Below, in pieces: positions 5,771-47,856 of a stretch of DNA of 64,000 bases; positions within the stretch are counted from its first letter, which is position 1, and each line of letters begins with the position of its first letter. The position numbers and the translations under genes were made by a program. The notes under the pieces are model-generated. The model saw only the letters and a program-made list of their open reading frames with translations, had not been told where the DNA came from and did not search any database. The DNA is from Pseudomonadota bacterium (lineage in GTDB: Bacteria; Bdellovibrionota; FAC87; UBA2466). The stretch covers positions 74,771 through 138,770 of the forward strand of contig JAYSWN010000068.1 of the NCBI GenBank assembly GCA_043718025.1. The letters are read 5' to 3'.

Positions 5771-7855
5771 TTGGACATAAAAGCGCAAAATCCAATCGAG
5801 AAGCAGGTAATTTTGGTGGGGGCTGGCAATGCTCACCTTGTTTTCATAAAAAAATGGCGCATGAAGTCCAGCCCGCGTGTTTCGATCGTGCTCATTAACG
5901 AATCGGCTGAAATGCCCTACTCCGCAATGATTCCCGGATTTTTGGCCCGGGAATACTGGCTAAATCAAGTTACTGTAGACTTAGTTCGCCTCTGTCGCTC
6001 AGCGGGAGTTCGTCTAATTGCAGGCAATCGGGTAACCGAGATCGATCTTAACGCAAAGCAGGTAGCGCTCTCCGCTCGGCCGACCCCTATGCCTTTTGAT
6101 TTTCTGTCGTTGAACGTCGGTAATGTAGCTGGTGAATCCGCGGGAGTGGCTTCCTCTGTTTTTCCTTTGCGTCCTCTCTCTCTTTTTCTTTCACGGCTTC
6201 CCGAACTCGATGAATTGGCAAAACGAGAGAAAACGATTGCCGTAGTGGGTGCGGGTCCATCGGGCTGCGAGGTGGCACTTGGCTTGGCTAACCGTTACCG
6301 CGATAGACCCGTCCGGATCGAAGTGTACGAGAGCGCTGACCGGGCCGTTCCCGAATTTCCTAAAAGGGCAGCAGACTGGTTTCAGCGGCGGTTTCGAAAA
6401 AACCAAATTCTATTTTTTCCAAACCGACAGTTAGATGAAAAATCTTATAAAGATTTTGGCGCAGTCATAATCGCCACTTCGCCGAGGCCAGAGACTTGGT
6501 TCACGCACTCGGGCCTAGATTGCGATGGCCGCGGGTTTGTAAAAGTTGGGCCAACTTTACAGTCAGTGTCTCACGAGTTTGTTTTTGCGGCGGGTGATGT
6601 AGCCGCGGTGCAAGGGGTTCGTCCCTTTGCGAAGAACGGTGTTTACTCGGTTCGCATGGGAGAAACCCTCTATCATTCGATCTCGGCCGCATTGCAATCT
6701 CAACCATTCCCAAAATTCCGCCCCCAGCCGAGGTATCTTGCGCTAATGAACGGAGGGCAGGGCGACGGCATGTTTAGTTATGGCGCGTTCACGCTCTATG
6801 GTCGCTGGGCGCGCAAATTGAAGTCACGCATCGATGAGGCTTGGGTATCGAGTTTTTTGAGTCCCGCGATGGCCGAAGATGAAGTGCCAGAGCCCATGCG
6901 CTGCTTAGGTTGCGCAGCAAAGGTGTCCGGCGCAGTGCTGAACGATAGCCTCGATAAGCTATCGCTCCTAGAGCGCGAAGACTCTACGATTGAAGAGCAT
7001 GCAGACTGTGAAAAGGTATCTCTAAAGTCGGTAGATTTTCTTTCTTTGTTTTTGGATGATCCCTTCACGTTTGGAAAAATCGCCGCGCTTCATAGCGTAA
7101 GCGACATCTACGCTATGAATGGTTCGCCGCAAACCGCGTTGGCCATTCTTACGGTTCCCTGGTCGGCCGAGAGGATCCAGAAGCAGTGGATTTTAGAAGT
7201 GATGAATGGTGCCGCGGAGATTGCTCGCCAAGAGGGGTTTGCGATCAACGGAGGTCACACTGGTGAGGCTGACCGACTCTCTTTTGGCTTGAGCGTAAGT
7301 GGCGAGGCCTTCAAATCGAAGTTGTTTTTAAAAAGCCAACTCCAGCCCGGCGATATTTTGGTGCTCACGAAAAAGTTGGGAGTCGGAACTCTCCTCGCTG
7401 CGTGGATGCGATCAATGGCCACCGCCGGTGAAATGAAAGAAGGTCTCGATGAAATGCTGAAGAGTAACTCTCTGGCCAGAATGGTCTTCGATGCAGTCGG
7501 AGTTAAAGCCGCCACTGACGTGACCGGTTTCGGTTTGGCCGGCCATCTTGGTGACATGCTCGATAAAAGTGGAGTCTCGGTTCGATTTGAATTTGACGCT
7601 TCGTTCGCGTTGTCTAGTTTTCAACGGCTGAATGGATTAGGAATTCACAGCACGATTTATCCTGAAAACAAGCGATACGGTTCCCGCTTTTGCGAAGCCC
7701 TGCCTGAAATCTTTTTTGATCCACAGACTTCCGGGGGGCTCTTAGGAGCTATTCCCAGCAATAAGTGGAATGCTTTTGAAAAATTATCGGTTGATAGAGG
7801 GCTGTTTTATTCGAAACTGGGGATCGTAGAACCCCCTAAATCGGCTTTAAATTAG
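5771..7855 (+). CDS. selD: Fusion of an FAD/NAD(P)-dependent oxidoreductase and selenophosphate synthetase (Cys-type SelD)
   Basis: N-terminal LVGAGNAH, VVGAGPSGCE and FAAGD motifs; C-terminal CLGCAAK, SVDF, SDIYAMNG, GGHT, ATDVTGFGLAGH and DPQTSGGLL SelD motifs. Confidence 0.9.
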   Translation: MDIKAQNPIEKQVILVGAGNAHLVFIKKWRMKSSPRVSIVLINESAEMPYSAMIPGFLAREYWLNQVTVDLVRLCRSAGVRLIAGNRVTEIDLNAKQVALSARPTPMPFDFLSLNVGNVAGESAGVASSVFPLRPLSLFLSRLPELDELAKREKTIAVVGAGPSGCEVALGLANRYRDRPVRIEVYESADRAVPEFPKRAADWFQRRFRKNQILFFPNRQLDEKSYKDFGAVIIATSPRPETWFTHSGLDCDGRGFVKVGPTLQSVSHEFVFAAGDVAAVQGVRPFAKNGVYSVRMGETLYHSISAALQSQPFPKFRPQPRYLALMNGGQGDGMFSYGAFTLYGRWARKLKSRIDEAWVSSFLSPAMAEDEVPEPMRCLGCAAKVSGAVLNDSLDKLSLLEREDSTIEEHADCEKVSLKSVDFLSLFLDDPFTFGKIAALHSVSDIYAMNGSPQTALAILTVPWSAERIQKQWILEVMNGAAEIARQEGFAINGGHTGEADRLSFGLSVSGEAFKSKLFLKSQLQPGDILVLTKKLGVGTLLAAWMRSMATAGEMKEGLDEMLKSNSLARMVFDAVGVKAATDVTGFGLAGHLGDMLDKSGVSVRFEFDASFALSSFQRLNGLGIHSTIYPENKRYGSRFCEALPEIFFDPQTSGGLLGAIPSNKWNAFEKLSVDRGLFYSKLGIVEPPKSALN

Positions 7856-34632: not shown

Positions 34633-35298
34633 TCACTTGGTTCCAAACTGGTAGGCAACCTGGGAATCGTCGGAGAAGATCGGATTGCGAACGAAAAAGG
34701 CCGCCTGCACGGTAAATGGACGACGGGCGATCTTAGATTCCGCCTGGCTCGACAAGGCACCGACGATATGAAAACGAACAAAACAATTCTCGGTCGTGGG
34801 ATTGACGGCATGTTGCTCGCTGATGCGCCGGGGTAACAGTGGACACGTTTCGCTGTCCATTTTTGTGTCGCCGCAGAACGTAACTGTCTTGATATGACGA
34901 TAGCTCGCGCCGGAAGACCAAGTTCCCAGCTCTTCATCCGTTAACGTTTCATAGAATACGGTATGGCTCACGGTATCTAAACGAAAGCGAACCTCCGTCG
35001 TGTCGCCCGTGGGTGGCCGTTTAAAGTCGACGGAGCATTGAAGCGTTGTTTCATTCGCTTCACGGCAGCCGCTCGGACTTACGCCCGGGACCACACTGGC
35101 GGCCCGGCCAATTTTGAGAATGTGGTCGGTGAGCGCGGTAACACTCTCTTCCATGGCCGACCGATCCGAAAATAGGAACGATAAGAAAGTCTGGTTGCCA
35201 CCCACCCTGAGAAATAGGGTCGTGGCGAGCGAAAGGAGGACCATTACGATGAGTGTTTCAAGCAATGTGAACCCTTTATCGGAATAGATTTGACGCAT
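34633..35298 (-). CDS. Prepilin-type N-terminal methylation protein (PilW/PulJ-like minor pilin)
   Basis: Class III signal KG|FTLLETLIVMVLL; four Cys in the globular domain. Confidence 0.8.
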   Translation of the reverse strand: MRQIYSDKGFTLLETLIVMVLLSLATTLFLRVGGNQTFLSFLFSDRSAMEESVTALTDHILKIGRAASVVPGVSPSGCREANETTLQCSVDFKRPPTGDTTEVRFRLDTVSHTVFYETLTDEELGTWSSGASYRHIKTVTFCGDTKMDSETCPLLPRRISEQHAVNPTTENCFVRFHIVGALSSQAESKIARRPFTVQAAFFVRNPIFSDDSQVAYQFGTK

Positions 35299-35299
35299 T

Positions 35300-35893
35300 T
35301 TATTTCTCCAAAATTAGCAGCGAGAGTTGAACTTCTTTTTCTTCGAATCCACCACTGCGTGCCGCCACCCAATTAGCCACCACCGAAACCAGTAGAGTTT
35401 GATTTGGGCTTAGCGGGAATTCCGCTGGGGTTTTGCCGCAAGCTTTGGAATTTACTTCTCGCGTGATGCGATCGATCACCTCGACTCGGTAATAGCGATT
35501 AAGCGTCTGCATGGTGCCAACATTTTCTGGCCCCCCTTCATTCGCCGCAGAGCCGGCTAAGGGGTCGGGCAGGGCGACGACCCCCGTTGCCCGATCAAGC
35601 CGATTAATATCGGCACAAAAAGCGTAAGGAAGGCTCGTTGGATCGACGGGGTTTTTGCCGAGGTACGCAAGGAGCGTGTTGTTTTTCATTGAACGAAAGA
35701 ATTCGGCAAGCTCGGTTGCACTCGATTGAGCAATCACTCGCTGCTGCACTCGTGCCATCGTCTTGCGCGATGAGACCTCTCCCACCAACATGATGAAGAG
35801 GGCCAGCGAGATGATTAGCAGGGACATCACAAACGATAAAAGAGTGAAGCCACTTTTACCCCGGAGGTAAGAGTGCGGTTTAAAGTCTCTCAT
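35300..35893 (-). CDS. Minor pilin-like protein (PilV-like position), lacking Glu5
   Basis: KSG|FTLLSFVMSLLII followed by a hydrophobic helix; Cys pair; C-terminal VSVVANW strand. Confidence 0.7.
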   Translation of the reverse strand: MRDFKPHSYLRGKSGFTLLSFVMSLLIISLALFIMLVGEVSSRKTMARVQQRVIAQSSATELAEFFRSMKNNTLLAYLGKNPVDPTSLPYAFCADINRLDRATGVVALPDPLAGSAANEGGPENVGTMQTLNRYYRVEVIDRITREVNSKACGKTPAEFPLSPNQTLLVSVVANWVAARSGGFEEKEVQLSLLILEK

Positions 35894-35895
35894 GT

Positions 35896-38040
35896 TTATT
35901 CCTTTCCCACGGGTTGAAATTCAGTCTCTTCAGGATACGGTTCGCCCGGAGGGTAGCTCATGGTTTTACCTCTTCCGAGCATTCCGTTGCTGTTGTAGCC
36001 TTTGCAATACGCTCGTTCCGTAGTCTCAAGGCAACTAATGCGAAACAAGCTCGAAAGAACGCGTGTGATTTTAGGGTGGTGGGGCAGGTTTGGCCTTTCC
36101 CACAAAACCGGCTTTTGTATGAACGCGGGAGTGGCGCCGTAAGTTCGTCCCCAATAGAAGAGTTTTCCCGATTTTTCTTCGGCGACGATTTGGCCGTCAA
36201 AGGTTCCCAACAATTTTGTAGTGCCAGAGTAGTTAGCCACCCCTTCGGTCTCCACGGCACGCGGAGTGTAATCCCACGGAATGTGGTAGCTCGTCGGGGA
36301 ATTGAAAGAGAGGTAATCTGGGGGAACGTGGCCCGGGGGACGGGTAACGACGGGGCCACGCCCGAGCAATCCGCTATAACCCGTATGCCCCCAACTCGAT
36401 AGTTTACCGTTACGGTGAACTGCGAATACCACATTGTTGATACAGGAGAGGTTGAGATCGTTTTCCGTTTCGCCGGGTCCCAGCAAAGACGCCAAGTTGA
36501 GCTTATGAGGCGGCGTTGTGGAGTTTGATCCGATTCGGACCGTGTGAGGATGCACCAGAATATCTCGCGATGAATTCTCTCCCGTGGTGTACCAACTGCC
36601 GCCGCTGGTCTGCAGGTAAATGGCGTTTCCGCAGGCATTCATTTGGCTCCATTTTTCATTGTTTGCGGGAACTTGGAAGTGCGTGCCGTCGTTGGCGTCA
36701 TTTCCGCAAAATGACCAGGTTAAGCGAACGGGGTCATAGGAAATTCCGGAGCCCAAACTTGCTAACGAGTTTTCCTTTAAGAGATAAACACCCCAGCCGC
36801 TGTTTATCCGGCCCCAACAGTAGATCTCCCCTTCAGAAGTAAGACCGCAGGTCTGTTGGTCGAGTACTGCGACGTCCGAAAAGGCGGGGACTGGCTTGCC
36901 CTCCGGAAGACGCATGGGAAGAGGCTTCTTGGAACAGATTTCTTCTTTCAAACAAATGTCTGGAGCCTTTCCCCCTTGTCCGAGCAGACCATAATCTGAG
37001 GAGGAGGCCTCGTTCTCTCTCTCGTTAACTTGATCGAGCCCCCAGCAGTAGAGTTTCTTATCTTTGGAAAGGCCACAGAACCGATGTGCCCCGCCAGTAA
37101 TTTTAGTGAAAGTCTTCTCGCCGGACATTGCGGAGGTGTCCACGGGTAGTGGAAAAGACGCACAGAGTACCGGATGTGTTTTTGGTGCCGGCCAAGCAAG
37201 GTCCTCTTCCGTCGTGCACGGTTCGAGCCCTTTCGTACTTTCTCCAATTCCAAGACTGCCTCTCATGTGCTCTCCCCAGCAATAGGCCTTTCCCGCTCGG
37301 TCGAGGCCGCAAACGGCCTCCCCATTGGTGGCTAGTGATACGATGGGAATGTCTCGTCTGCCGGCAGGCGTGGGAGTTGGTGAAGGACTTGGACTCGGTT
37401 GTGGATCCGGATCCGGACTTGGACTGGGTGACGGATCGGGGCTCGGCGATGGATCCGGATTCGGCGTTGGCGTGGGACTTGGCAAAGCATCCGGACTCGG
37501 CGTTGGAATGGGGCTCGGTGTGGGGGACGGAGTAAGTGGGGTCTTTAAGGCGAGGCAAGTTTGAATCATAGTACCATTCATTTTTTTTCGACCGCAAAGA
37601 CTGGCTCCGCTAAGAAGAAAATGGGTAGGATTTTTGGGATCGACGGGGGGTAACTTTACGGAGAAATCTCCCCCCGAAAACCGTTTCATCGCGCTTGAGT
37701 AAATTGGTTTTGTCGGCGTCTCATTTTCCTTAGGTTCGGCGACGCCATTCTCGATGAAGTCGACGCGGCGAATGCAATCCCCGGCGCTGGCATCAATGAC
37801 TTCAGCTTTTACGGCATAATATTGATTCAACGCCACCACTTCTGCATCGAGCACAGCCTGCTGGGAGTTCAGCCGTGTCGTCTGGCGCCGAACGTGAACT
37901 GAACTCAGCACTTGAATCGCGGTTACCCAACTCATGCTCAGGGTCAATAACAGGACGGCCGTAGCGACGAATACATCGCCCTTGCTGTTTTTTAGTCCTC
38001 GACGAAGTTGAATCTTAAAAAAATGTGAGTGCAGAGGCAA
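35896..38040 (-). CDS. PilX-like pilin N-terminus fused through a Pro-rich linker to an RCC1-like beta-propeller (putative pilus-tip adhesin)
   Basis: [15 protein letters not shown]; repeated CG(L)...G..YCWG and G.LG.G RCC1/BLIP-II motifs; TTG start with AGGAG RBS. Confidence 0.75.
37367..37540 (-). repeat. Coding low-complexity (PT/PS/PD)n linker
   Basis: Encodes [56 protein letters not shown]. Boundaries approximate. Confidence 0.85.
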
Positions 38041-38113
38041 TGTCGCTCCTAAAGTGGATTTAATGAATCTGGCTTAGGTGTACCTTTAGACTACGCAAAG
38101 GCCGGTTTCTGCT

Positions 38114-38134
38114 CCACCTACGAATTTGGTGCGA
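38114..38134. promoter_or_regulatory. 21-bp motif, copy 1 (upstream of the pilin/RCC1 operon)
   Basis: CCACCTACGAATTTGGTGCGA; a minus-strand TAGTCT -10 box (38088-38093) lies exactly 20 nt away. Confidence 0.75.
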
Positions 38135-38184
38135 TGGGTTGCAACTTGCGTGGAAAATGAGTGGTGGTGAACGTCGTAAATGAC

Positions 38185-38230
38185 GAAGGTCTCCCTTCTC
38201 GTTAGGTGGGTAACGAAAAGGGAGACCTTC
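38185..38230. terminator. 20-bp stem hairpin between the EF-hand gene and the pilin operon promoter
   Basis: GAAGGTCTCCCTTCTCGTTA / TAACGAAAAGGGAGACCTTC with one mismatch (G-U on the minus strand). The U-tail is weak. Confidence 0.55.
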
Positions 38231-38299
38231 TTTCTGCGAGATTACTAGGGGGAATATAGCTAGAGGGTAACACTTTCGGAAGGGGGGGCTTGCGGAGTT

Positions 38300-38905
38300 T
38301 TAACGATAGACATTGGCTGCCGCCGTGATTTCATCATTGTCTAGCCACTGGTCTTGATTGAGATCGACCCAACCATGACGTGCGTAGCATTCCATCTTTG
38401 GTTTCGTGGAATTGAGCAGGTACTCCGCGACCAAAAATGAAGCGCTGCGCAGTGCTGTCTTCTCCGTCGTCGAAAGAGCACCATCTTTATTGGTATCAGC
38501 CTTTGAAAAATAGACCAGCTCGGCAACCAGACAGTTGTGAATTGAACTTCGGTCGGAGAGATCTGTAAATGCATACGTCTCGATTGACCGACGGTTTACG
38601 AGACCGAGCAAGGACTTCACGATTTCACTATCGAAAGCACTGATGACTCCGTCGCGGTTCAGGTCAAACATTTGATTTTGCGTCGTGATTCGAGCCCCCA
38701 AGTTATTCATGATTCCTCCGTAGGCCTCATGGTATTCTCGAGGGGTAAAAACGCCGTCCCCATTTGTGTCTAATAAGCGCGAAAACATCTGATGTAGTTT
38801 AAAGCTGGTACGTCCATTCAATTGGTTCACGCATTCCGCGTGGGCTCGCGTTGAATTGATGACGAGGGCCAGCAATAGTAGCGGTAGGCCGAGGGTAATT
38901 TTCAT
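38300..38905 (-). CDS. Secreted EF-hand (calcium-binding) protein
   Basis: ATG 38905 with AGGAG RBS; signal peptide ending AHA; four loops DTNGDG, DLNRDG, DTNKDG, DLNQDQ. Confidence 0.8.
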   Translation of the reverse strand: MKITLGLPLLLLALVINSTRAHAECVNQLNGRTSFKLHQMFSRLLDTNGDGVFTPREYHEAYGGIMNNLGARITTQNQMFDLNRDGVISAFDSEIVKSLLGLVNRRSIETYAFTDLSDRSSIHNCLVAELVYFSKADTNKDGALSTTEKTALRSASFLVAEYLLNSTKPKMECYARHGWVDLNQDQWLDNDEITAAANVYR

Positions 38906-38970
38906 GTCTTTCACTCCTGTTATGGTTGGGGGGCTGATGTACTTAGAATACGGAGAATGCGGTGAGTGGC

Positions 38971-38991
38971 CCACGTACGAATTTGGTGCGA
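38971..38991. promoter_or_regulatory. 21-bp motif, copy 2 (upstream of the EF-hand gene)
   Basis: CCACGTACGAATTTGGTGCGA; a minus-strand TATTCT -10 box (38945-38950) lies exactly 20 nt away. Confidence 0.75.
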
Positions 38992-39087
38992 AGTCTTGGG
39001 CAGAGAAACAGTATCCCTTCCGAAATTCATTTCCAGAAAGTACCCATTAGCTTGCTTATCATTTTTGGAAACAGAATGGGTGAGAGG

Positions 39088-40014
39088 TTAAAAACCAACT
39101 GCTTCGAGAGTGTTGCGCTCGCCACTACGGGAGGCGCTAGAGTCGCCAGTGCTGCCGGTGACGCCTCGGAATGCGCCCGCGCCTGAATCCACGGGGGGGC
39201 CGCCCGCCAACTCAGAGAAATGGTACATCCAGTTACCGACACCATCCAAGCCGTTATAAATGAAACCGCCGAATCGATAACTTACCGATCTTCCGCCACC
39301 CGTCTTAATAACATCCTCCGAATGAATCTCGATGTAATCACTTCCGGTCGGGGACATGGAGCCGGCAGAAATGATTGCGCCGCCCGAATATTTAACCTGG
39401 CCATTGGCATTTAGTTTTGCCGTCACAATGATGGCATCGCGTTTCTCAATATGAGTAAGCCCATCTTCATGGTTTGTGGGCTCAGCAGCAACCGCCGCGG
39501 CCTCAACAATATATTCTTGATCTGGCTCAGGAGGACTCGAACCAATAGCTGCGGTGCGAGCGGCACTGTTTTTTCGCTCACTTAGTGGTTTCCAGACAAT
39601 TGGAATCAAGGGGAAGGGATTTTCATCGTACTCGGTCAAGTAGACGGTTTTCGCCCCGATGGAGAACGGTTCGGGAGGACGAGAAAGGCGAATTGCTTTC
39701 TGTCCTGCAGTGTCACCGCCAGCGGGGTCTTGGGCCACCACGTAGCCATTTTTTGTTACAAACAAAAATCTTAGCGCCCGTCCCGTTGCGTAGTTCCCCC
39801 TGCCATCTTCGATCGTGGTCATCGGGGAATTCGGGTGCAAGGACCAAGCAATGGCCACGGCTCCAGAAATGCCAGTGGTAGTTCCGGCACCGGTGGTGAC
39901 ACCGCCTCCCTGGGGGCGGGCACATTGCCCAATGCCTACGGTGGAAAGGCCGATGAGAAGGTAGCCTAACCATCTCCAAGCCTTAAATGGTTTTGTCGGC
40001 AATGGGCGCATCAA
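39088..40014 (-). CDS. Hypothetical exported protein, probable lipoprotein
   Basis: Basic N-terminus, hydrophobic stretch, GIGQC lipobox-like site, Gly/Thr linker. Start is 40014 (TTG) or 40011 (ATG); GAGG RBS. Confidence 0.65.
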   Translation of the reverse strand: MMRPLPTKPFKAWRWLGYLLIGLSTVGIGQCARPQGGGVTTGAGTTTGISGAVAIAWSLHPNSPMTTIEDGRGNYATGRALRFLFVTKNGYVVAQDPAGGDTAGQKAIRLSRPPEPFSIGAKTVYLTEYDENPFPLIPIVWKPLSERKNSAARTAAIGSSPPEPDQEYIVEAAAVAAEPTNHEDGLTHIEKRDAIIVTAKLNANGQVKYSGGAIISAGSMSPTGSDYIEIHSEDVIKTGGGRSVSYRFGGFIYNGLDGVGNWMYHFSELAGGPPVDSGAGAFRGVTGSTGDSSASRSGERNTLEAVGF

Positions 40015-40089
40015 CCAATTACCTCGTTGGGGGGAATAATGAATAGAGGCTCCCTTATTGTAGGTGTTTCTGAGATTGGGTGAAATTGC

Positions 40090-40104
40090 GCAATTTCGAT
40101 GCCA
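40090..40104 (-). promoter_or_regulatory. Sigma54 (-24/-12) promoter of the lipoprotein gene
   Basis: TGGCATCGAAATTGC on the minus strand: GG-N10-GC with TGGCA and TTGC, about 75 nt upstream of the start. Confidence 0.7.
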
Positions 40105-40158
40105 GACGGATATCTTAATTGGGCTGAGAAAGATGAGGGTTTAAGCAAATTGTGTTGG

Positions 40159-40179
40159 GCACGTACTAATTTGGTGCAA
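40159..40179. promoter_or_regulatory. 21-bp motif, copy 3 (in the regulator's own promoter)
   Basis: GCACGTACTAATTTGGTGCAA, 18/21 identical to copy 2, covering the -35 position of a plus-strand TATAAT at 40190-40195. Confidence 0.65.
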
Positions 40180-40212
40180 CAAGTTTGATTATAATTACGG
40201 AGGGGAGAACGA

Positions 40213-41718
40213 ATGGGCTCGACGACAAAACCTTCTCTAAAGACACAGCTTTTGGAAGAAATTGATGTCGCTATTCGGGAAGGGCGAAAAGACGATGCGC
40301 GCAAATTACTGCGCGCAAATTTTTCGGAGCGGTCAAAAATACCAAGACCATCGCTCTCCCGAATCGCCAATCTGCTTCGCCGCTCCGACATGCCAATGTC
40401 AGCCATCTTTGCGTTGAATCCTGTCGTACGGCCGAGTTCCCGTTCCCCATCTCAAGCCACCGACGGCGAGAGGCTCGAATACGCAGCTTCGCTCATTAAC
40501 ATTGGGGCGCCGGAGGAGGCGTCAGGGATATTAAGCAGCGTGGACGCTTCTAAAAACCCCGATACTTGGCTATTTCGCGCCTTTGCGTCAGTGGCCAAAT
40601 GGGATTATGCGGGTAGCATCGGTGAGTTGAAAGCCTATCTCTCGGTAGCTACGCTTGCTCCTTACGCCCAGTTAGTCGGCAGAGCCAACCTCGTGGCCGC
40701 GTTGATTGCGGAAGACAAGAACGTCGAGGCCGATGAAGTGTTAATTCCGCTTTTGGCAGCCACGAGAGAACAAAAGCACGAGTTGCTTCACTCTTCCGCC
40801 ATGGAGCTTGCCGCGCGTAACGAATTTAGCCGACAACGATGGGACGCTTTCGACGCGAGATTGGCCGAGATGACCTTGCGGCAATCTTCCTTAGATTCAT
40901 TTCAACGGTTCATCATCAAAAAGTGGTCAGTTTTGAAAGGCGTTATTCAAAGCAAGGGCGAGCCCGAAGCACTACTCGCCTTGCAGGAGTTAAGGCAAGA
41001 AGCGGAGACAAGGGGGCACTGGGAAACCGTAAGGGACTGCGATCGCTATTTTGCTACTACACAAAAAAACTTTCCACTTTTTACACATCTCTTTTTTGGC
41101 ACCGAATCTGCGATCTATAGATCAAAGCTGCATACCGCATGGACCGGACATCCTAAATTACCGAGCCACTACGAGTGGCATTTGCTTGTGAAAAAGAGTT
41201 CACCGGTTCTACGGCTTGAGACCGGAGAATGGGCCGGCAAAAGTCACTGCATTAAAATTGGGCAGTTGACCCAGCGAACCTTTCAGGCCTTTTGCAGTGA
41301 CTTCTATCGGCCGCTTCGATTGGCAAGTTTGCACTTTCGCCTCTATCCGAAAGAATATTTCAACCCCCACTCTTCGCCCGATCGCGTGCACCGGGCGATT
41401 CGATTGTTTCGAGAATGGTGTCGGAGTCATAGAGCCCCTTTTCTCATCCAAGAAGCAAATCACAACTATTCATTAGGCACCGCAAAACCCGTTGCCATTG
41501 AGGTGGCGTCTCCAGATTTGGTTCGGGACAATGTGGGAGCAAAACTCTTGTTGCTGCAAAAAAAAATGGGGGCAGAACAGTTTACGATCGAAGAGGCTAC
41601 GGCGACGCTAAAAATTTCTCGCAGTGCTTTGCACCGTCTGTTTCGGGAAGCGATGGCAAAGGGCTCTATTCAACGGCAAGGAAATGGCGCGGCAACGGTG
41701 TATAAAATTGCGGCCTAA
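40213..41718 (+). CDS. Putative transcriptional regulator: helical TPR-like N-terminus plus two winged-HTH-like segments
   Basis: OmpR-like segment RLYPKEYFNPHSSPDRVHRAIRLFREW; C-terminal wHTH FTIEEATATLKISRSALHRLFREAMAKGSIQRQGNGAATVY; GGAGG RBS. Confidence 0.7.
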   Translation: MGSTTKPSLKTQLLEEIDVAIREGRKDDARKLLRANFSERSKIPRPSLSRIANLLRRSDMPMSAIFALNPVVRPSSRSPSQATDGERLEYAASLINIGAPEEASGILSSVDASKNPDTWLFRAFASVAKWDYAGSIGELKAYLSVATLAPYAQLVGRANLVAALIAEDKNVEADEVLIPLLAATREQKHELLHSSAMELAARNEFSRQRWDAFDARLAEMTLRQSSLDSFQRFIIKKWSVLKGVIQSKGEPEALLALQELRQEAETRGHWETVRDCDRYFATTQKNFPLFTHLFFGTESAIYRSKLHTAWTGHPKLPSHYEWHLLVKKSSPVLRLETGEWAGKSHCIKIGQLTQRTFQAFCSDFYRPLRLASLHFRLYPKEYFNPHSSPDRVHRAIRLFREWCRSHRAPFLIQEANHNYSLGTAKPVAIEVASPDLVRDNVGAKLLLLQKKMGAEQFTIEEATATLKISRSALHRLFREAMAKGSIQRQGNGAATVYKIAA

Positions 41719-41848: not shown

Positions 41849-42178
41849 CTACCAGCGGCCGCGCGTTCTGATAACCGTTCTGCTGTGATAAGAGTGGGTC
41901 GGTACTGTGTAGTACGTCTGATAAACAGGGTACGTGTATAGAATCGGCGTCGGTTGGTAATACACAATCGGAGCCGGTTGATAGTAATAGATAGGAGCTA
42001 CTGGAACGTAGTAGCCGCCGCCGTATCCGCCCCCGTAACCACCGCCACCATTTCCTGAATTGATATTGATGGTTCCACTGTTGTTGTTAAAGCTGTTGTT
42101 GTATTCCTGCGCGAAACTCGGAGAGCTCACGAGAAAACCGACCATAAAGAAACAAGCAAACATAATATTTTTGATCAT
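41849..42178 (-). CDS. Small secreted Asn/Gly/Tyr/Pro-rich protein
   Basis: Signal peptide ending SFA; (GGGY)n then PxxY repeats; RBS present. Confidence 0.75.
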   Translation of the reverse strand: MIKNIMFACFFMVGFLVSSPSFAQEYNNSFNNNSGTININSGNGGGGYGGGYGGGYYVPVAPIYYYQPAPIVYYQPTPILYTYPVYQTYYTVPTHSYHSRTVIRTRGRW

Positions 42179-44144: not shown

Positions 44145-44366
44145 AACGAACCGGCATAGCAAGAAAAGGGCGCATAACCAATGACTATCAGCATTATTTT
44201 TAAATAATGGGTCTGCCGTGGACAAATCTGAAGATAAGGCATTTAACGCGAGACCGTTTCTTTTCTTACCCTTTATTTGTAAGTTTTTCCTGATTTGTCA
44301 TCAGCCCGACTCGCTAGCTACTTTTTTCCAATCTTTAAGAGTAAAATTTCTGCCGGAGGTGGTGAG

Positions 44367-45650
44367 GTGATAGGGCAATCGTGGGGGCGGCGTTCGCGCC
44401 TACCGCAAAAACTGCTCCCTATTTATTGGCGTGACGAAGATTGGTTTCGTGACGTGGCTTTGCCAAAGCGCCTTCCGCGCGGAGCTGGTCGTTCTTACGG
44501 CGACCTTTGTCTAAACACTCAAGGGATATTGTTACAAACCCAGGGGCTTAACCGTTTCCTCCACTTTGATGAAGAACGCGGTACGATCACCTGCGGCGCC
44601 GGTCTTACCATCGGTGAAGTTCTTGCGGTTACCATGCCGCGGGGGTTTTCGTTCTTCACTTGTCCCAACTCAATCGGTATCACGGTGGGCGGGGCCGTCG
44701 CTGCTGACGCTCACGGCAGAAATCATTACTCTCAGGGCTCTTTTGGAAACCATATTGAATCATTCGAATTAGTTCGCACTCATCAAGGCTCTGTTGTCTG
44801 TTCGGCAGAGGAGAATTCTGAACTGTTTCACGCGACGATAGGTGGTCTGGGACTGACTGGAGTCATCACGTGGGTAAAGATTCGTTTAAAACCAATTGCT
44901 TCAGACTACGTGGAAGGCGAGAAAAAAAAGGTAGAGAGCATCCACGATGGGATACGCCTGCTTTCTGAATGGCACGAGAAATATGAGTACGTTTGTTTGT
45001 GGTGGGATCTCTACTCGAAAAGTCGCGGGGTACTAGTAGGGGCGAACCATGCCGCGAGAAAAAGTGTTGAAGCTACGGGGCGATTTTATTCGCGTCTCTC
45101 GGTACCTTTTGATTTTCCACGTTTTTTGATCAATCGGCGATCGATGAAACTCTTCAACAAGGCTTACTATTTATTCAAACGAGACGCTTTGTTTCGACGG
45201 CCGCTGAAGAACTACCTCTTTACTCTTGACCAGCTAAAAAACTGGAACCGACTGTTTGGTCGTCATGGTTTCATGCATTTCCACTTTGTGATTCCGCGAA
45301 GAAACGAGAACCAAGTGCCAGAGATTCTCGAGCAGATGCGCGCTGATGGAGAAACCCCTGCTCTGTGTATTATCAAACGTTTTGGTGAGGTTCCCGCACG
45401 GGGCGCATTGTCTTTTCCTATCCCGGGCATCATGGTGGCCACCGATTTTAAATTTTGCGGTCAACGAACCGTCGCGGCCTTTCGGCGTTGGGAAAAAAGT
45501 GTCATCGCTTTGGGGGGGCGCCTCTATTTAGCTAAAGATTTAGTACTTACTCCCGACGGGTTTAAAACCAGCTACCCAAACTGGAATTCCTTTGCCACCT
45601 TTAAAGATCCACTTTTTTCTTCAGATCTTTGGGAGAGGCTAATGCCGTGA
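44367..45650 (+). CDS. FAD-binding oxidoreductase, DprE1-like
   Basis: SWGR, RGAGRSYGD, TVGGAVAADAHGRNH, ATIGGLGLTG, GGRLYLAKD and FSSDLWERL motifs. Start set at GTG 44367. Confidence 0.85.
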   Translation: MIGQSWGRRSRLPQKLLPIYWRDEDWFRDVALPKRLPRGAGRSYGDLCLNTQGILLQTQGLNRFLHFDEERGTITCGAGLTIGEVLAVTMPRGFSFFTCPNSIGITVGGAVAADAHGRNHYSQGSFGNHIESFELVRTHQGSVVCSAEENSELFHATIGGLGLTGVITWVKIRLKPIASDYVEGEKKKVESIHDGIRLLSEWHEKYEYVCLWWDLYSKSRGVLVGANHAARKSVEATGRFYSRLSVPFDFPRFLINRRSMKLFNKAYYLFKRDALFRRPLKNYLFTLDQLKNWNRLFGRHGFMHFHFVIPRRNENQVPEILEQMRADGETPALCIIKRFGEVPARGALSFPIPGIMVATDFKFCGQRTVAAFRRWEKSVIALGGRLYLAKDLVLTPDGFKTSYPNWNSFATFKDPLFSSDLWERLMP

Positions 45651-46351
45651 AAGCAAAAAACGCTCTAGTTTTCGGCGCCAGTTCACAAATCGCCCTCGAA
45701 CTTTGTCATGAGTTGGCTAGGGGCGGAACCCGGTTAACAATGATTGCCCGAAGCGCAATGCGCCTAGAAGAGATTGCTAATGATTTGAGAATTCGTTACG
45801 GGGCATTGGTCCAATGGCAGCCCGAAAGCGACGAGGCGCTAGGTCAAGGCTTAGAGCGGCTAGATGCTTTTGACCTAGTTGTTGTGGCGTACGGCGTGTT
45901 GGAAGGGCCTTTGGCGACTTTGATCGAAACTAACCTGACCAAAGTTGTTTTGCTTCTTTCGCAAATTGTCGCTCAGGCCGATTCTGAGAGACCACTTTCG
46001 ATTCTGGTGTTTAGTTCTATAGCGGCCGACCGTCCCAAGGAAAGAAATCTGGCTTACGGTGCGGCGAAGGCCGGGCTAGATTTTTACTTAGCGGGCGTGA
46101 GAGAGCAATGTCGGGCTACAAAAATTAAGATCATAACGGTGAAACCTGGGGACACTTTCAGCCCAATGACTCGCGGACGAAACCTTATCTTTCCTTCAAA
46201 TGCCACCGACGTGGCACGTTCTTTAATTGACCGATTCCCGCTGTCTCCCGGTACTGTTTATTCGCCCCGGTTTTGGGGACCGATCATGACCGCAGTGCGA
46301 ATGATGCCAAGGTGGTTATTTCGTATTACGGAAAGGTTTCGCCGGATTTAG
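45647..46351 (+). CDS. Short-chain dehydrogenase, DprE2-like
   Basis: VFGASSQIA, SSIAADR, YGAAKAG and VKPG motifs; GTGA overlap with the DprE1-like gene. Confidence 0.8.
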   Translation: MKAKNALVFGASSQIALELCHELARGGTRLTMIARSAMRLEEIANDLRIRYGALVQWQPESDEALGQGLERLDAFDLVVVAYGVLEGPLATLIETNLTKVVLLLSQIVAQADSERPLSILVFSSIAADRPKERNLAYGAAKAGLDFYLAGVREQCRATKIKIITVKPGDTFSPMTRGRNLIFPSNATDVARSLIDRFPLSPGTVYSPRFWGPIMTAVRMMPRWLFRITERFRRI

Positions 46352-47856
46352 TACAATTTGAATTCCTCGCAACCCGCCTGTCGTGGGGCGAAAAGGCTTA
46401 AGGATTCGGTCGTTGGCTTGCAGCCGTACTTCGTTAATTCGACTTCCCACTTGGGCCACGATGAAACGGGTGATTTGAAATGGGTTACCACCAGATCGAA
46501 TTCATGAAAGTTTTTGACTTGGTCTGCAGTTAGCTCATCTTTCGTGCTTAGGGCCCACGTAGAAATAGACGCGTTTTTCTTTTTTAAAGTCAAATTGTGT
46601 GGAAAATTCTGGGTTTTAGTACGCTTAGAGTCCAACTGGTAACCTTGCTTTAATGCGAGCCATTTTATTTGCTCTAATATTATCCAGTCTTCGATCACGA
46701 ATCCAACCCTCTTTCCGCTCCCGAGCGAGCTCATTTTGGAGTTCATGAGTGTTTCTCGGTAAAGGTACCCCTCCTTTAGTCCTCGCCAAAAAAGTGGAGC
46801 GATACTAATTGAGGATATGAACCGTGCCCCGTCGTGTGAATAGAAAACCGAGTTGGCTCGCGGTAAAATATACTGCGCGCAGAAGCAGAATACGGCCGCG
46901 GCGGTGAGAACTACGCGAAACCAACCCTTCTGTTGCGTGAGGTAGCGCAAACCTTGCAATGCAAGTAACGCGAGAAAGGGGATCGCATACAGAAAATATT
47001 TGGGGGTAGTATAAGTGGGGAAATAAGCGGCCGCGATTGGTACGAATGCCAGCAAAACAAGAAACAGAATGCGCCGTTCTTCCGGTTTGATTCGCGATGC
47101 AAACACACCTAAACAAAGAGAAAAGGAAATTAGCCAAGTAAAAACCGAAGCAAGGGATTGTTGAGCTAAAGTCCAATGCAAAAAACCATTTCGATGATGT
47201 ATTTGGTACTCATTAGACATATTCAATAGAAATGCGGGGTTTCCCATCGAAAATAAGAGAAGAAGCAGAAAAGTGCCCGCCGCAAGAGGTACATCGTCTC
47301 TCGAAATTTTTCCCCAGGCTATAGCAATAAACAAGATCGCCGGGGCCAGCAACACGGCATCGATACGAATCCAAATCGCAATCGCTAGAATCAAGGCGGC
47401 CAACAGATTAAGGTACCGCTGGGCATACGATGCCAGCAACGCTGACGATAGGATAAAAGGTGCCGCCAGCATGTTTGAATTGGCGTAGTAGCCAGATACA
47501 TAGACTTCTTGAAAGAGGAGCAGCACCAGACCGCATTCGGCCCAAGGCCTTTTTGTAAGTCTAGCGATGAAGGTGGCGGCGACAAAAATGAAGGCTACAC
47601 AAGCCAGTGCCGTGAGCGCTCCGTACACCGTCAAAATATTTTGCCCCGTCATTTTAGAGAAGACTTTAAGAAGGACGTAGGTGCCGCGAAGATTTTTGGC
47701 CTGGTAGCCAACATCGATTCCGATTTGGCCGGTCATTTGCATTTGGGCGGCGTTCGCTACGGCAAGATCATCGCCCTCCACCGCCACCAGTGGGTAGAAT
47801 CCAAGGACAATGTAGGCCAGTAAAACGATAAATAGCACTGGCGCCAATCGCTTCAT
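46348..47856 (-). CDS. Polytopic membrane protein, GT-C glycosyltransferase-like
   Basis: EGDD acidic motif after TM1, about 11 TM segments, IRID and PKYFLYAIPF motifs, soluble C-terminal tail. Confidence 0.55.
   Translation of the reverse strand: MKRLAPVLFIVLLAYIVLGFYPLVAVEGDDLAVANAAQMQMTGQIGIDVGYQAKNLRGTYVLLKVFSKMTGQNILTVYGALTALACVAFIFVAATFIARLTKRPWAECGLVLLLFQEVYVSGYYANSNMLAAPFILSSALLASYAQRYLNLLAALILAIAIWIRIDAVLLAPAILFIAIAWGKISRDDVPLAAGTFLLLLLFSMGNPAFLLNMSNEYQIHHRNGFLHWTLAQQSLASVFTWLISFSLCLGVFASRIKPEERRILFLVLLAFVPIAAAYFPTYTTPKYFLYAIPFLALLALQGLRYLTQQKGWFRVVLTAAAVFCFCAQYILPRANSVFYSHDGARFISSISIAPLFWRGLKEGYLYRETLMNSKMSSLGSGKRVGFVIEDWIILEQIKWLALKQGYQLDSKRTKTQNFPHNLTLKKKNASISTWALSTKDELTADQVKNFHEFDLVVTHFKSPVSSWPKWEVELTKYGCKPTTESLSLFAPRQAGCEEFKLY

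Follow-up and report, generated by a model that had tools for sequence, protein, structure and literature searches.

Which protein recognizes a 21-bp motif that recurs in a single orientation around the gene of a putative regulator, and what does it do there? This question is raised by a stretch of 64,000 nucleotides (nt) from a Pseudomonadota bacterium (GTDB lineage Bacteria; Bdellovibrionota; FAC87; UBA2466), namely positions 74,771 to 138,770 of the forward strand of contig JAYSWN010000068.1 (assembly GCA_043718025.1), referred to below as the window. The regulator, a protein of 501 aa, is encoded on the plus strand at 40213..41718. As judged from sequence comparisons, the motif is very probably a genuine feature and the operator of this gene product. 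It is also likely that the protein would bind it as a single chain in fixed orientation, activate promoters from positions -54..-35 and repress its own gene.

Three copies on one strand had been described in the original prediction, and they are confirmed at 38114..38134 (copy 1), 38971..38991 (copy 2) and 40159..40179 (copy 3), all on the minus strand. They display 1, 0 and 3 mismatches to copy 2, respectively, and the mean number of matches in 100 dinucleotide shuffles of the window is 0.00. The exact 20-nt spacing claimed for copies 1 and 2 is also found: TAGTCT (38088..38093) and TATTCT (38945..38950), both on the minus strand, are the first TANNNT hexamers downstream of copies 1 and 2, respectively. 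With sigma-70 geometry, transcription would start at ~38081, placing copy 1 at -53..-33 of a predicted minor-pilin/RCC1 operon promoter, and at ~38938 in the case of copy 2. Neither copy is accompanied by a canonical -35, as had been stated. Indeed, the hexamers located 17 nt upstream of the -10s are TGGAGC and TGGGCC, the best TTGACA match at 16-18 nt spacing is 3/6, and no sigma-70 pair was found by a consensus promoter scan at copies 1-3. Copy 3 stands in reverse orientation within the regulator's own promoter, across its -35 position, again as predicted: it ends 10 nt from the TATAAT (40190..40195, plus strand) and overlaps the TAATTT found at 17-nt spacing. In its activating direction, copy 3 has CCTCAT at 20 nt, hence no -10, and the first TANNNT appears at 41 nt.

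Scanning the whole 4.14-Mb assembly yields a fourth copy of the same geometry on another contig (copy 4, G000:C17:5788-5808, 2 mismatches). With a matrix that draws only on the window copies, a check suggested with the original prediction, it scores 29.1, and the next site scores 18.0; beyond the four copies, 0 sites with 4 mismatches and 10 with 5 are found, leaving none between 3 and 5. The -10-like TAAAAT of copy 4 comes after exactly 20 nt, the frequency of TANNNT in the genome being 0.0092, and is followed by 6 nt and the ATG of a 98-aa lipoprotein-like gene. Because this ATG lies only 6 nt past TAAAAT, the sequence suggests a leaderless transcript.

Could the copies be remnants of a dispersed repeat or of a promoter duplication, as the original prediction itself had envisaged? 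Copies 1 and 2 have 10/20 spacer bases and 5/6 bases of the -10 in common, a likeness that is possibly the trace of an old duplication, and duplication may spread sites. However, identity among the four copies is 17-20/21 within the site, whereas it falls to 12-23/60 upstream and to 5-11/34 downstream of the -10, so that the boundaries are sharp and the flanks unrelated. Since flank identity is at background level, unlike that of the site, the copies do not behave as a dispersed repeat; the position conserved in other genomes and the covariation with protein residues, both presented below, also speak against this origin, which is largely excluded and is the least credible of the alternatives weighed here.

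The exact motif is private to the genome of the window. In 33 other genomes of the same taxonomic family, four contain one match each, all with 2 mismatches, and a reversed control pattern gives 1 match in the same genomes. A metagenome search returned 3 exact matches. TANNNT is present at 20 nt in 0/7 of these outside matches and the regulator at 0/3 of the metagenome loci; as true sites, these candidates were discarded and read as chance. A sigma-54 element was likewise considered as the identity of the motif and rejected, the GG and GC doublets of the consensus being absent.

Homologues of the regulator provide a broader view of the site. Local repeats seen beside several of them prompted a search of 77 regulator loci (one a duplicate) for non-coding 20-mer pairs in register with a [TC]ANNNT box, the interval -54..-35 being taken from the window's own geometry. 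In-register pairs with identity of at least 16/20 occur there at 9/77 loci, vs 0-2 at four other positional windows and 4/191 control tiles. Seven of the nine pair loci, chosen by eye, have one common frame; L099, L054 and the second L098 pair were excluded by eye as outside this frame, and the local repeats at L091, L093, L042, L035 and L079 were left out of training. When each locus is left out in turn, all 14 training sites rank 1-3 among 46-141 candidates. The 14-site model was then frozen and applied to anchors within 300 nt of a regulator and exactly 22 nt from a -10. Of the 2,628 such anchors at 101 held-out non-redundant loci, 12 are called as sites, and they belong to 11 loci. The counts at 12 other spacings are 0-3, those in 40 control stretches amount to 3/7,567 anchors, and 1,000 column shuffles give a mean of 0.35 with a maximum of 3. 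Within 6 kb of regulators, the count is 18/11,383 vs 1-5 at other spacings. In 33 later loci, mostly of other families, the iterated model finds 7 sites in 5 loci at the exact spacing vs 0-3.

The iterated consensus of 40 sites reads (W/C)TCNCGCCA-W5-N-T-N-AGT at -54..-35. The 21-mer proposed as the unit has therefore to be redrawn: the site is real, but what is conserved in it is a 20-mer, asymmetric and located at -54..-35, with the last two bases of the 21-mer outside, which corresponds to 38116-38135 for copy 1 and 38973-38992 for copy 2. A palindrome is not found in the family sites, dyad pairing being 0.09-0.33 at all centres from -47 to -38.5, nor is an 11-bp direct repeat, period-11 identity being 0.23 family-wide. 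Thus, the CAC-N11-GTG dyad reported earlier is present in the sequence but is incidental, because the family frame is neither dyad nor direct repeat; its pairing of 0.27 at centre -42 is about what chance gives. This also separates the family from CRP/FNR and MarR-type dimers, which use palindromic operators. An 11-bp direct repeat TCGCAC/TCGTAC was attractive for the window copies and was set aside, as it lacks family-wide support.

In 31 called sites, the distance to the -10 is exactly that of the frame, and a few more deviate by +/-1; the best -35 matches at these 31 promoters are 1-4/6, like background. These figures bear on the idea that the protein binds but represses, or serves only as a divergent-promoter switch. 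TPR regulators can activate or repress, and copy 3 appears repressive. Nevertheless, a repressor needs no fixed phase, whereas the spacing to the -10 is exact, the -35 matches stay at background and the site stops at -35, leaving the core promoter free. A purely repressive role is therefore quite improbable.

A fixed spacing to a -10 is also shown by sigma elements, and the genome contains other fixed-spacing motifs unrelated to the regulator family, so that the motif might be the promoter element of an unrelated factor, either an alternative sigma or a global activator. However, the 22-nt gap fits neither sigma-70 nor sigma-54 spacing. One consensus per genome would also be expected, but two different variants coexist in genome G016, with identity of 17-18/20 within a locus and 8-14 between paralogues; such within-locus identity is partly circular for training loci, and held-out multi-site loci give 14, 14 and 17/20. 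Moreover, the bases track residues of this very protein, as described below, and an unrelated factor is highly improbable.

Whether the site belongs to the product of 40213..41718 rather than to another family member is a narrower question, as the genome of the window encodes seven paralogues. Whole-genome searches with four locus variants place 10/10 exact matches within ~7 kb of their own paralogue; at 2 mismatches, the searches add one site away from the regulator in its genome and four in different genomes. Among sites facing away from the regulator, 22/30 rows, including one duplicate row and the training loci, lie within -60..+40 of its start codon. In the window, three of the four copies are at most 2.1 kb from 40213..41718 and one covers its promoter, and no other paralogue of the genome has the window variant near its ends, the best resemblance among the top family-model sites being 13/20. 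The alternative of binding by another paralogue, or of a site shared among paralogues with the adjacent gene as one target, draws on the C40, C200 and C41 paralogues, which have the same residue classes at positions 393, 471 and 475, on the location of copy 4 on another contig and on an assembly that is 92% complete. Given that variants elsewhere adjoin their own paralogue, it is unlikely, although somewhat less so than the alternatives above. Assignment to 40213..41718, proposed from the outset as an inference, is supported by copy 4, by the frame at homologues, by residue-base covariation and by the fact that no other paralogue carries the variant at its own promoter.

Covariation between protein and site was assessed on 40 regulator-site rows, with L088 (two paralogues) and L106 (no intact open reading frame) kept outside discovery and L044 lacking the second DNA-binding domain. 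Because site calling used no protein data, a residue-base association is not built in. When 23,171 residue-base pairings were tested blindly over the 40 rows, the top two were residue 393 with base -36 (r 0.91, family-wise p 0.009) and residue 475 with base -47 (r 0.87, family-wise p 0.083). These residues lie in two successive C-terminal domains, named D2 (393) and D3 (475). C-47 accompanies R475 in 17/17 rows vs 0/7 of the others in discovery, and in 12/13 vs 1/3 in validation; altogether, it is found in 29/30 R475 rows, and A is found in 9/10 rows with another residue (S, I, L, E, N or K). R393 goes with C-36 (4/4 vs 0/20 in discovery, 2/3 vs 0/13 in validation). A third pair links R471 to G-49 (18/18 vs 3/6 in discovery, then 8/9 vs 2/7 at 16 further loci, where -49 was masked during site calling). 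In the window protein, these positions are H393, S471 and R475, and its four sites all carry G-36, A-49 and C-47, so that its residues would fit its sites under this three-residue code.

Several observations weigh against this interpretation. Most homologue loci show no detectable site, since sites are found in 11/101 loci with the strict model and in 27/77 with the iterated one; specificity may have diverged there or sites may have been lost. Among the six other paralogues of the genome, only C209 has a clear candidate site. In the first held-out set, the unanchored orientation contrast is modest, with 13 vs 7 of 71 at a score of at least 9. The family model gives copy 3 a score of only 0.8, and this copy lacks a -10 at 20 nt; its T at -52 is also found in copy 4, which is nevertheless in phase. 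Four of the seven paralogues share H393/non-R471/R475, and the code alone does not single out 40213..41718. The R471/-49 pair was spotted by eye and its family-wise p is 0.98. A tree based on the TPR part only is star-like (7/37 branches supported), R475 and C-47 each changing 8 times, and the independent-pairs test is not significant, with 1, 2 and 4 pairs on supported branches and sign-test p of 1, 1 and 0.25, a design that is underpowered. Whole-domain Mantel tests are weak, 1/28 reaching p 0.012, uncorrected. Finally, D2 aligns with a Trans_reg_C-type profile over 89 columns in register with weak scores (HHalign E 0.023).

The regulator itself consists of a TPR solenoid (residues ~9-310) followed by D2 (~319-432, including H393) and D3 (~440-499, including S471 and R475), and its AlphaFold2 model, built from a 150-row alignment, reaches a predicted local distance difference test (pLDDT) of 94.9. 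In this model, D2 (319-432) displays a beta-sheet, three helices, a loop between helices 2 and 3 and a C-terminal beta-hairpin wing, all with pLDDT >90, and is likely a winged helix of the OmpR/PhoB type. An OmpR profile reaches at least 8 bits in 9/150 D2 segments (maximum 18) vs 0/150 reversed ones, and a Trans_reg_C Pfam match is seen in 1/40 family members, below cut-off; Atlas scores of 0.83-0.84 are a lead only. For D3, MarR/ArsR-type winged helices are structural matches (Z 7.6-8.7). The single-sequence fold of D2-D3 is poor for D2 (mean pLDDT 63), and the fold searches made with it cover D3 only. Few parts of the family are as conserved as the D2 helix 2-3 loop (residues 379-389), with P379, E381, N384, P385, S388 and P389, and residue 383 is aromatic in 149/150 family rows.

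The family comprises 1,435 clusters at E <= 1e-30, with up to 11 copies per genome; it is present in 35/201 genomes of the phylum and in 18/32 others of the window's taxonomic family, and among the titled records of its matches, most come from metagenome assemblies of Bdellovibrionota type. In the 40 members searched, it is not spanned by any Pfam family, NCBIfam has no match for the window protein, and solved-structure matches are weak (best E 0.0027). Literature searches gave no description of the family or of the site, most subscription journals and all supplements being outside their coverage. Judged by the features tested, the protein falls outside the ToxR, SARP and response-regulator families: a receiver domain is absent from its N-terminus, where the first 310 residues form an all-helical TPR solenoid; the order of domains is TPR followed by two winged helix-turn-helix domains, the chain ending at the second one, so that no transmembrane/periplasmic sensor order is present; and BTAD is matched in 0/40 members at E <= 0.02.

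How such a protein could activate transcription is suggested by TcpP. Two winged helices of TcpP cover -52..-43 and -41..-35 at toxT of Vibrio cholerae, and the downstream protomer contacts the C-terminal domain of the RNA polymerase alpha subunit (alpha-CTD) through its helix 2-3 (transactivation) loop, in which a phenylalanine is critical (PMC12802830). The footprint is nearly that of the -53..-46 and -39..-35 halves found here, and the likeness to TcpP/ToxR extends to an OmpR-type fold, which is likely for D2, a one-component activator and an aromatic residue in the helix 2-3 loop of the downstream unit (PMC12802830). In contrast, TcpP is presented there as membrane-anchored and as binding a direct repeat by two identical protomers (PMC12802830), whereas the family considered here would use one soluble chain, with two unlike winged helices behind TPR repeats, on a site that is neither repeat nor dyad. 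The mode of action would thus resemble that of the TcpP tandem, in a family that lacks a covering model.

Covariation points to D2 and D3 together occupying a footprint like -52..-35. One chain would lay the two unlike winged helices on -53..-35 in fixed orientation, D3 reading the upstream half (R471 with G-49, R475 with C-47) and D2 the downstream half ending at -35 (H/R393 with G/C-36), a placement proposed because recognition-helix residues covary with bases there. The D2 loop 379-389 would then adjoin RNA polymerase, in the way seen with the downstream protomer of TcpP at toxT, and polymerase would be recruited through it by contact with alpha-CTD or sigma region 4; for a single chain with two winged helices, this step is deduced from the likeness to TcpP and from the conservation of the loop. 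In this way, -35-less promoters of exported and pilus-type genes would be activated, namely those of the RCC1/prepilin operon, the EF-hand protein and the small C17 lipoprotein. Binding to copy 3, which lies over the -35 of the regulator gene in reverse, would instead obstruct that promoter, and a repressive role of this copy fits with its being kept without an in-phase -10. In the least certain step, the TPR domain would gate activity in response to a ligand, possibly a peptide of a partner lipoprotein.

Other known regulators share some of these features. SARPs, as exemplified by AfsR and the afs box, also combine an OmpR-type DNA-binding domain, TPR-like helices and activation of promoters with a poor -35, but their DNA-binding domain is N-terminal, with BTAD behind it, and their sites are 11-bp direct repeats at -40..-19 (PMC10936776). 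In the present family, the TPR part is N-terminal, two DNA-binding domains are present, and the site spans -54..-35 without an 11-bp repeat (0.23). HilA, from the pathogenicity island SPI-1 of Salmonella, possesses TPR-like repeats and an N-terminal DNA-binding domain. It is likened here by description: it is an OmpR/ToxR-family activator usually encoded beside the secretion genes it controls, but it has a single winged helix and its regulon is a type III secretion system (PMC7232297).

If the proposed mechanism is true, it would provide 1,435 clusters of proteins with a predicted operator, a promoter geometry, a three-residue code and a polarity of domains relative to half-sites. The exported, lipoprotein and pilus regulons of uncultured predatory-type bacteria would become predictable from sequence, and E. 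coli systems with purified protein would allow each prediction to be tested. As an orthogonal part, a monomeric activator of two domains would be useful as well, its site being long, orientation-specific and retunable.

The predicted targets in the window are read from gene calls that are simple longest open reading frame picks. That of copy 1 is the gene at 35896..38040 (minus strand, TTG start after AGGAG), encoding a 714-aa protein with a pilin-like N-terminus read from the sequence, a Pro-rich linker and RCC1 repeats (RCC1_2, E 3.5e-14). Two minus-strand genes are likely co-transcribed with it: a prepilin-like gene with GFTLL (35300..35893; weak ComGC match, E 0.0096, below cut-off) and a prepilin gene with an N_methyl motif (34633..35298; TIGR02532 above cut-off). 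A 20-bp hairpin at 38185..38230 on the minus strand (z = -6.7 for 38160-38245) lies between copy 1 and the next gene and is likely a terminator parting the RCC1/prepilin and EF-hand units. Copy 2 is predicted to control the gene at 38300..38905 (minus strand, ATG after AGGAG), whose 201-aa EF-hand product (EF-hand_5, E 1.6e-10) has a signal-peptide-like N-terminus. By a crude heuristic, 21/30 starts downstream of called sites are signal-peptide-like vs 252/664 controls.

Divergent from the regulator is a 308-aa lipoprotein-like gene without a family match (39088..40014, minus strand), whose direction copy 3 faces. Three elements on the minus strand may serve it: a TAAGAT at 40112..40117, which is 41 nt past copy 3 (20 nt plus two helical turns) and a speculative alternative -10; a sigma-54-like -24/-12 match TGGCAT-N5-TTGC at 40089..40104, a type of pattern with 77 matches in the genome; and a candidate promoter TTCACC-16-TACAAT at 40084-40057. 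Sequences similar to the sigma-54-like one were seen by eye upstream of L010, L012 and L029, which suggests that partner genes beside several family members could be under dual control.

Lipoprotein-like genes often adjoin the regulators of the family (69/207 vs 55/728 control genes), and a GNGxG[YF]xG-like tag occurs in 23/69 of the adjacent lipoproteins vs 0/55 control lipoproteins, with a pattern tuned on the same data and duplicates not fully removed. Unrelated partner lipoproteins carry it 2-40 residues past the lipidated Cys, as in L083:4115-4783, L071, L092, L093 and L222. Because the divergent gene of the window lacks the canonical tag of the other partners, peptide sensing by the TPR part is hypothesized at the level of the family only. 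When the L083 regulator was modelled in complex with its tagged lipoprotein (residues 18-50), the result (score 0.01, mark 0.32) spoke neither for nor against such sensing.

The RRNPP proteins Rap, NprR, PlcR and AimR, together with MalT domain III, count among the closest structures to the TPR part (Z 13.5-17.1, root-mean-square deviation 4.5-6.2), and the arrangement of a cytoplasmic TPR regulator gene beside an exported protein with a short conserved tag is similar. However, equal scores are obtained with generic TPR proteins (Z 17.4 for LGN), sequence identity amounts to 6-10%, and peptide binding by the present family is only hypothesized. DNA-binding RRNPP members have an N-terminal helix-turn-helix and bind as dimers. 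A joint reading can be put forward tentatively and is doubtful as a whole: undescribed Bdellovibrionota activators would fuse a TcpP-like tandem into one chain, a few residues (393, 471, 475) would rewrite the 20-bp operator and create private regulons of exported and pilus proteins, and the TPR part would read the GNGxG[YF]xG lipoprotein tag. As part of that reading, the system would be a Gram-negative, lipoprotein-based counterpart of RRNPP signalling.

Candidate sites were also noticed elsewhere. That of the C209 paralogue (G000:C209:17828, minus strand) is just downstream of its gene, with TATACT at 23 nt. On the minus strand at G000:C199:1179, a family-type site scores 19.0 and has CACGAT where a -10 is expected. 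It is followed, close to the start of the contig, by a lipoprotein-like gene of 319 aa with a GDGTYG tag. This site is not the window variant in sequence, and it may belong to another or unassembled paralogue. At L091, an identical 20-mer lies on both sides of the regulator locus (1788-1808 and 7407-7427), overlapping a family-type site, with one copy adjoining an apparent tRNA 3' end; it could represent a second site or the scar of an integration.

Two paralogues have a small secreted protein rich in Gly and Tyr (GGGYGGGY) encoded beside them (window 41849-42178, minus strand, and G000:C40:428-871), and pairs of FAD-oxidase and short-chain dehydrogenase genes, presumably DprE1/DprE2-like, lie a few kb from two paralogues (window 44295-47856 and G000:C200:13007-15099). 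Other fixed-spacing motifs of the genome include a two-copy motif ATCGGCGCAGAT..GA.TGC (G000:C106:35010 and 24970, minus strand), each copy 20 nt before TAAAAT or TATTCT, in a similar frame with 1 nt less between halves and on a contig with no family member. A further recurrent promoter motif, GGTGACA-N3/4-TTGC..CTT, stands ~21 nt before a -10 at G000:C58:4764, C63:22575, C185:17773, C198:317 and C216 ~13.5-27 kb. Several dispersed non-coding repeat families of at least 100 nt, often at contig ends, are found on many contigs (C26, C59, C60, C117, C140, C27, C38, C49, C21, C51, C102 and C180).

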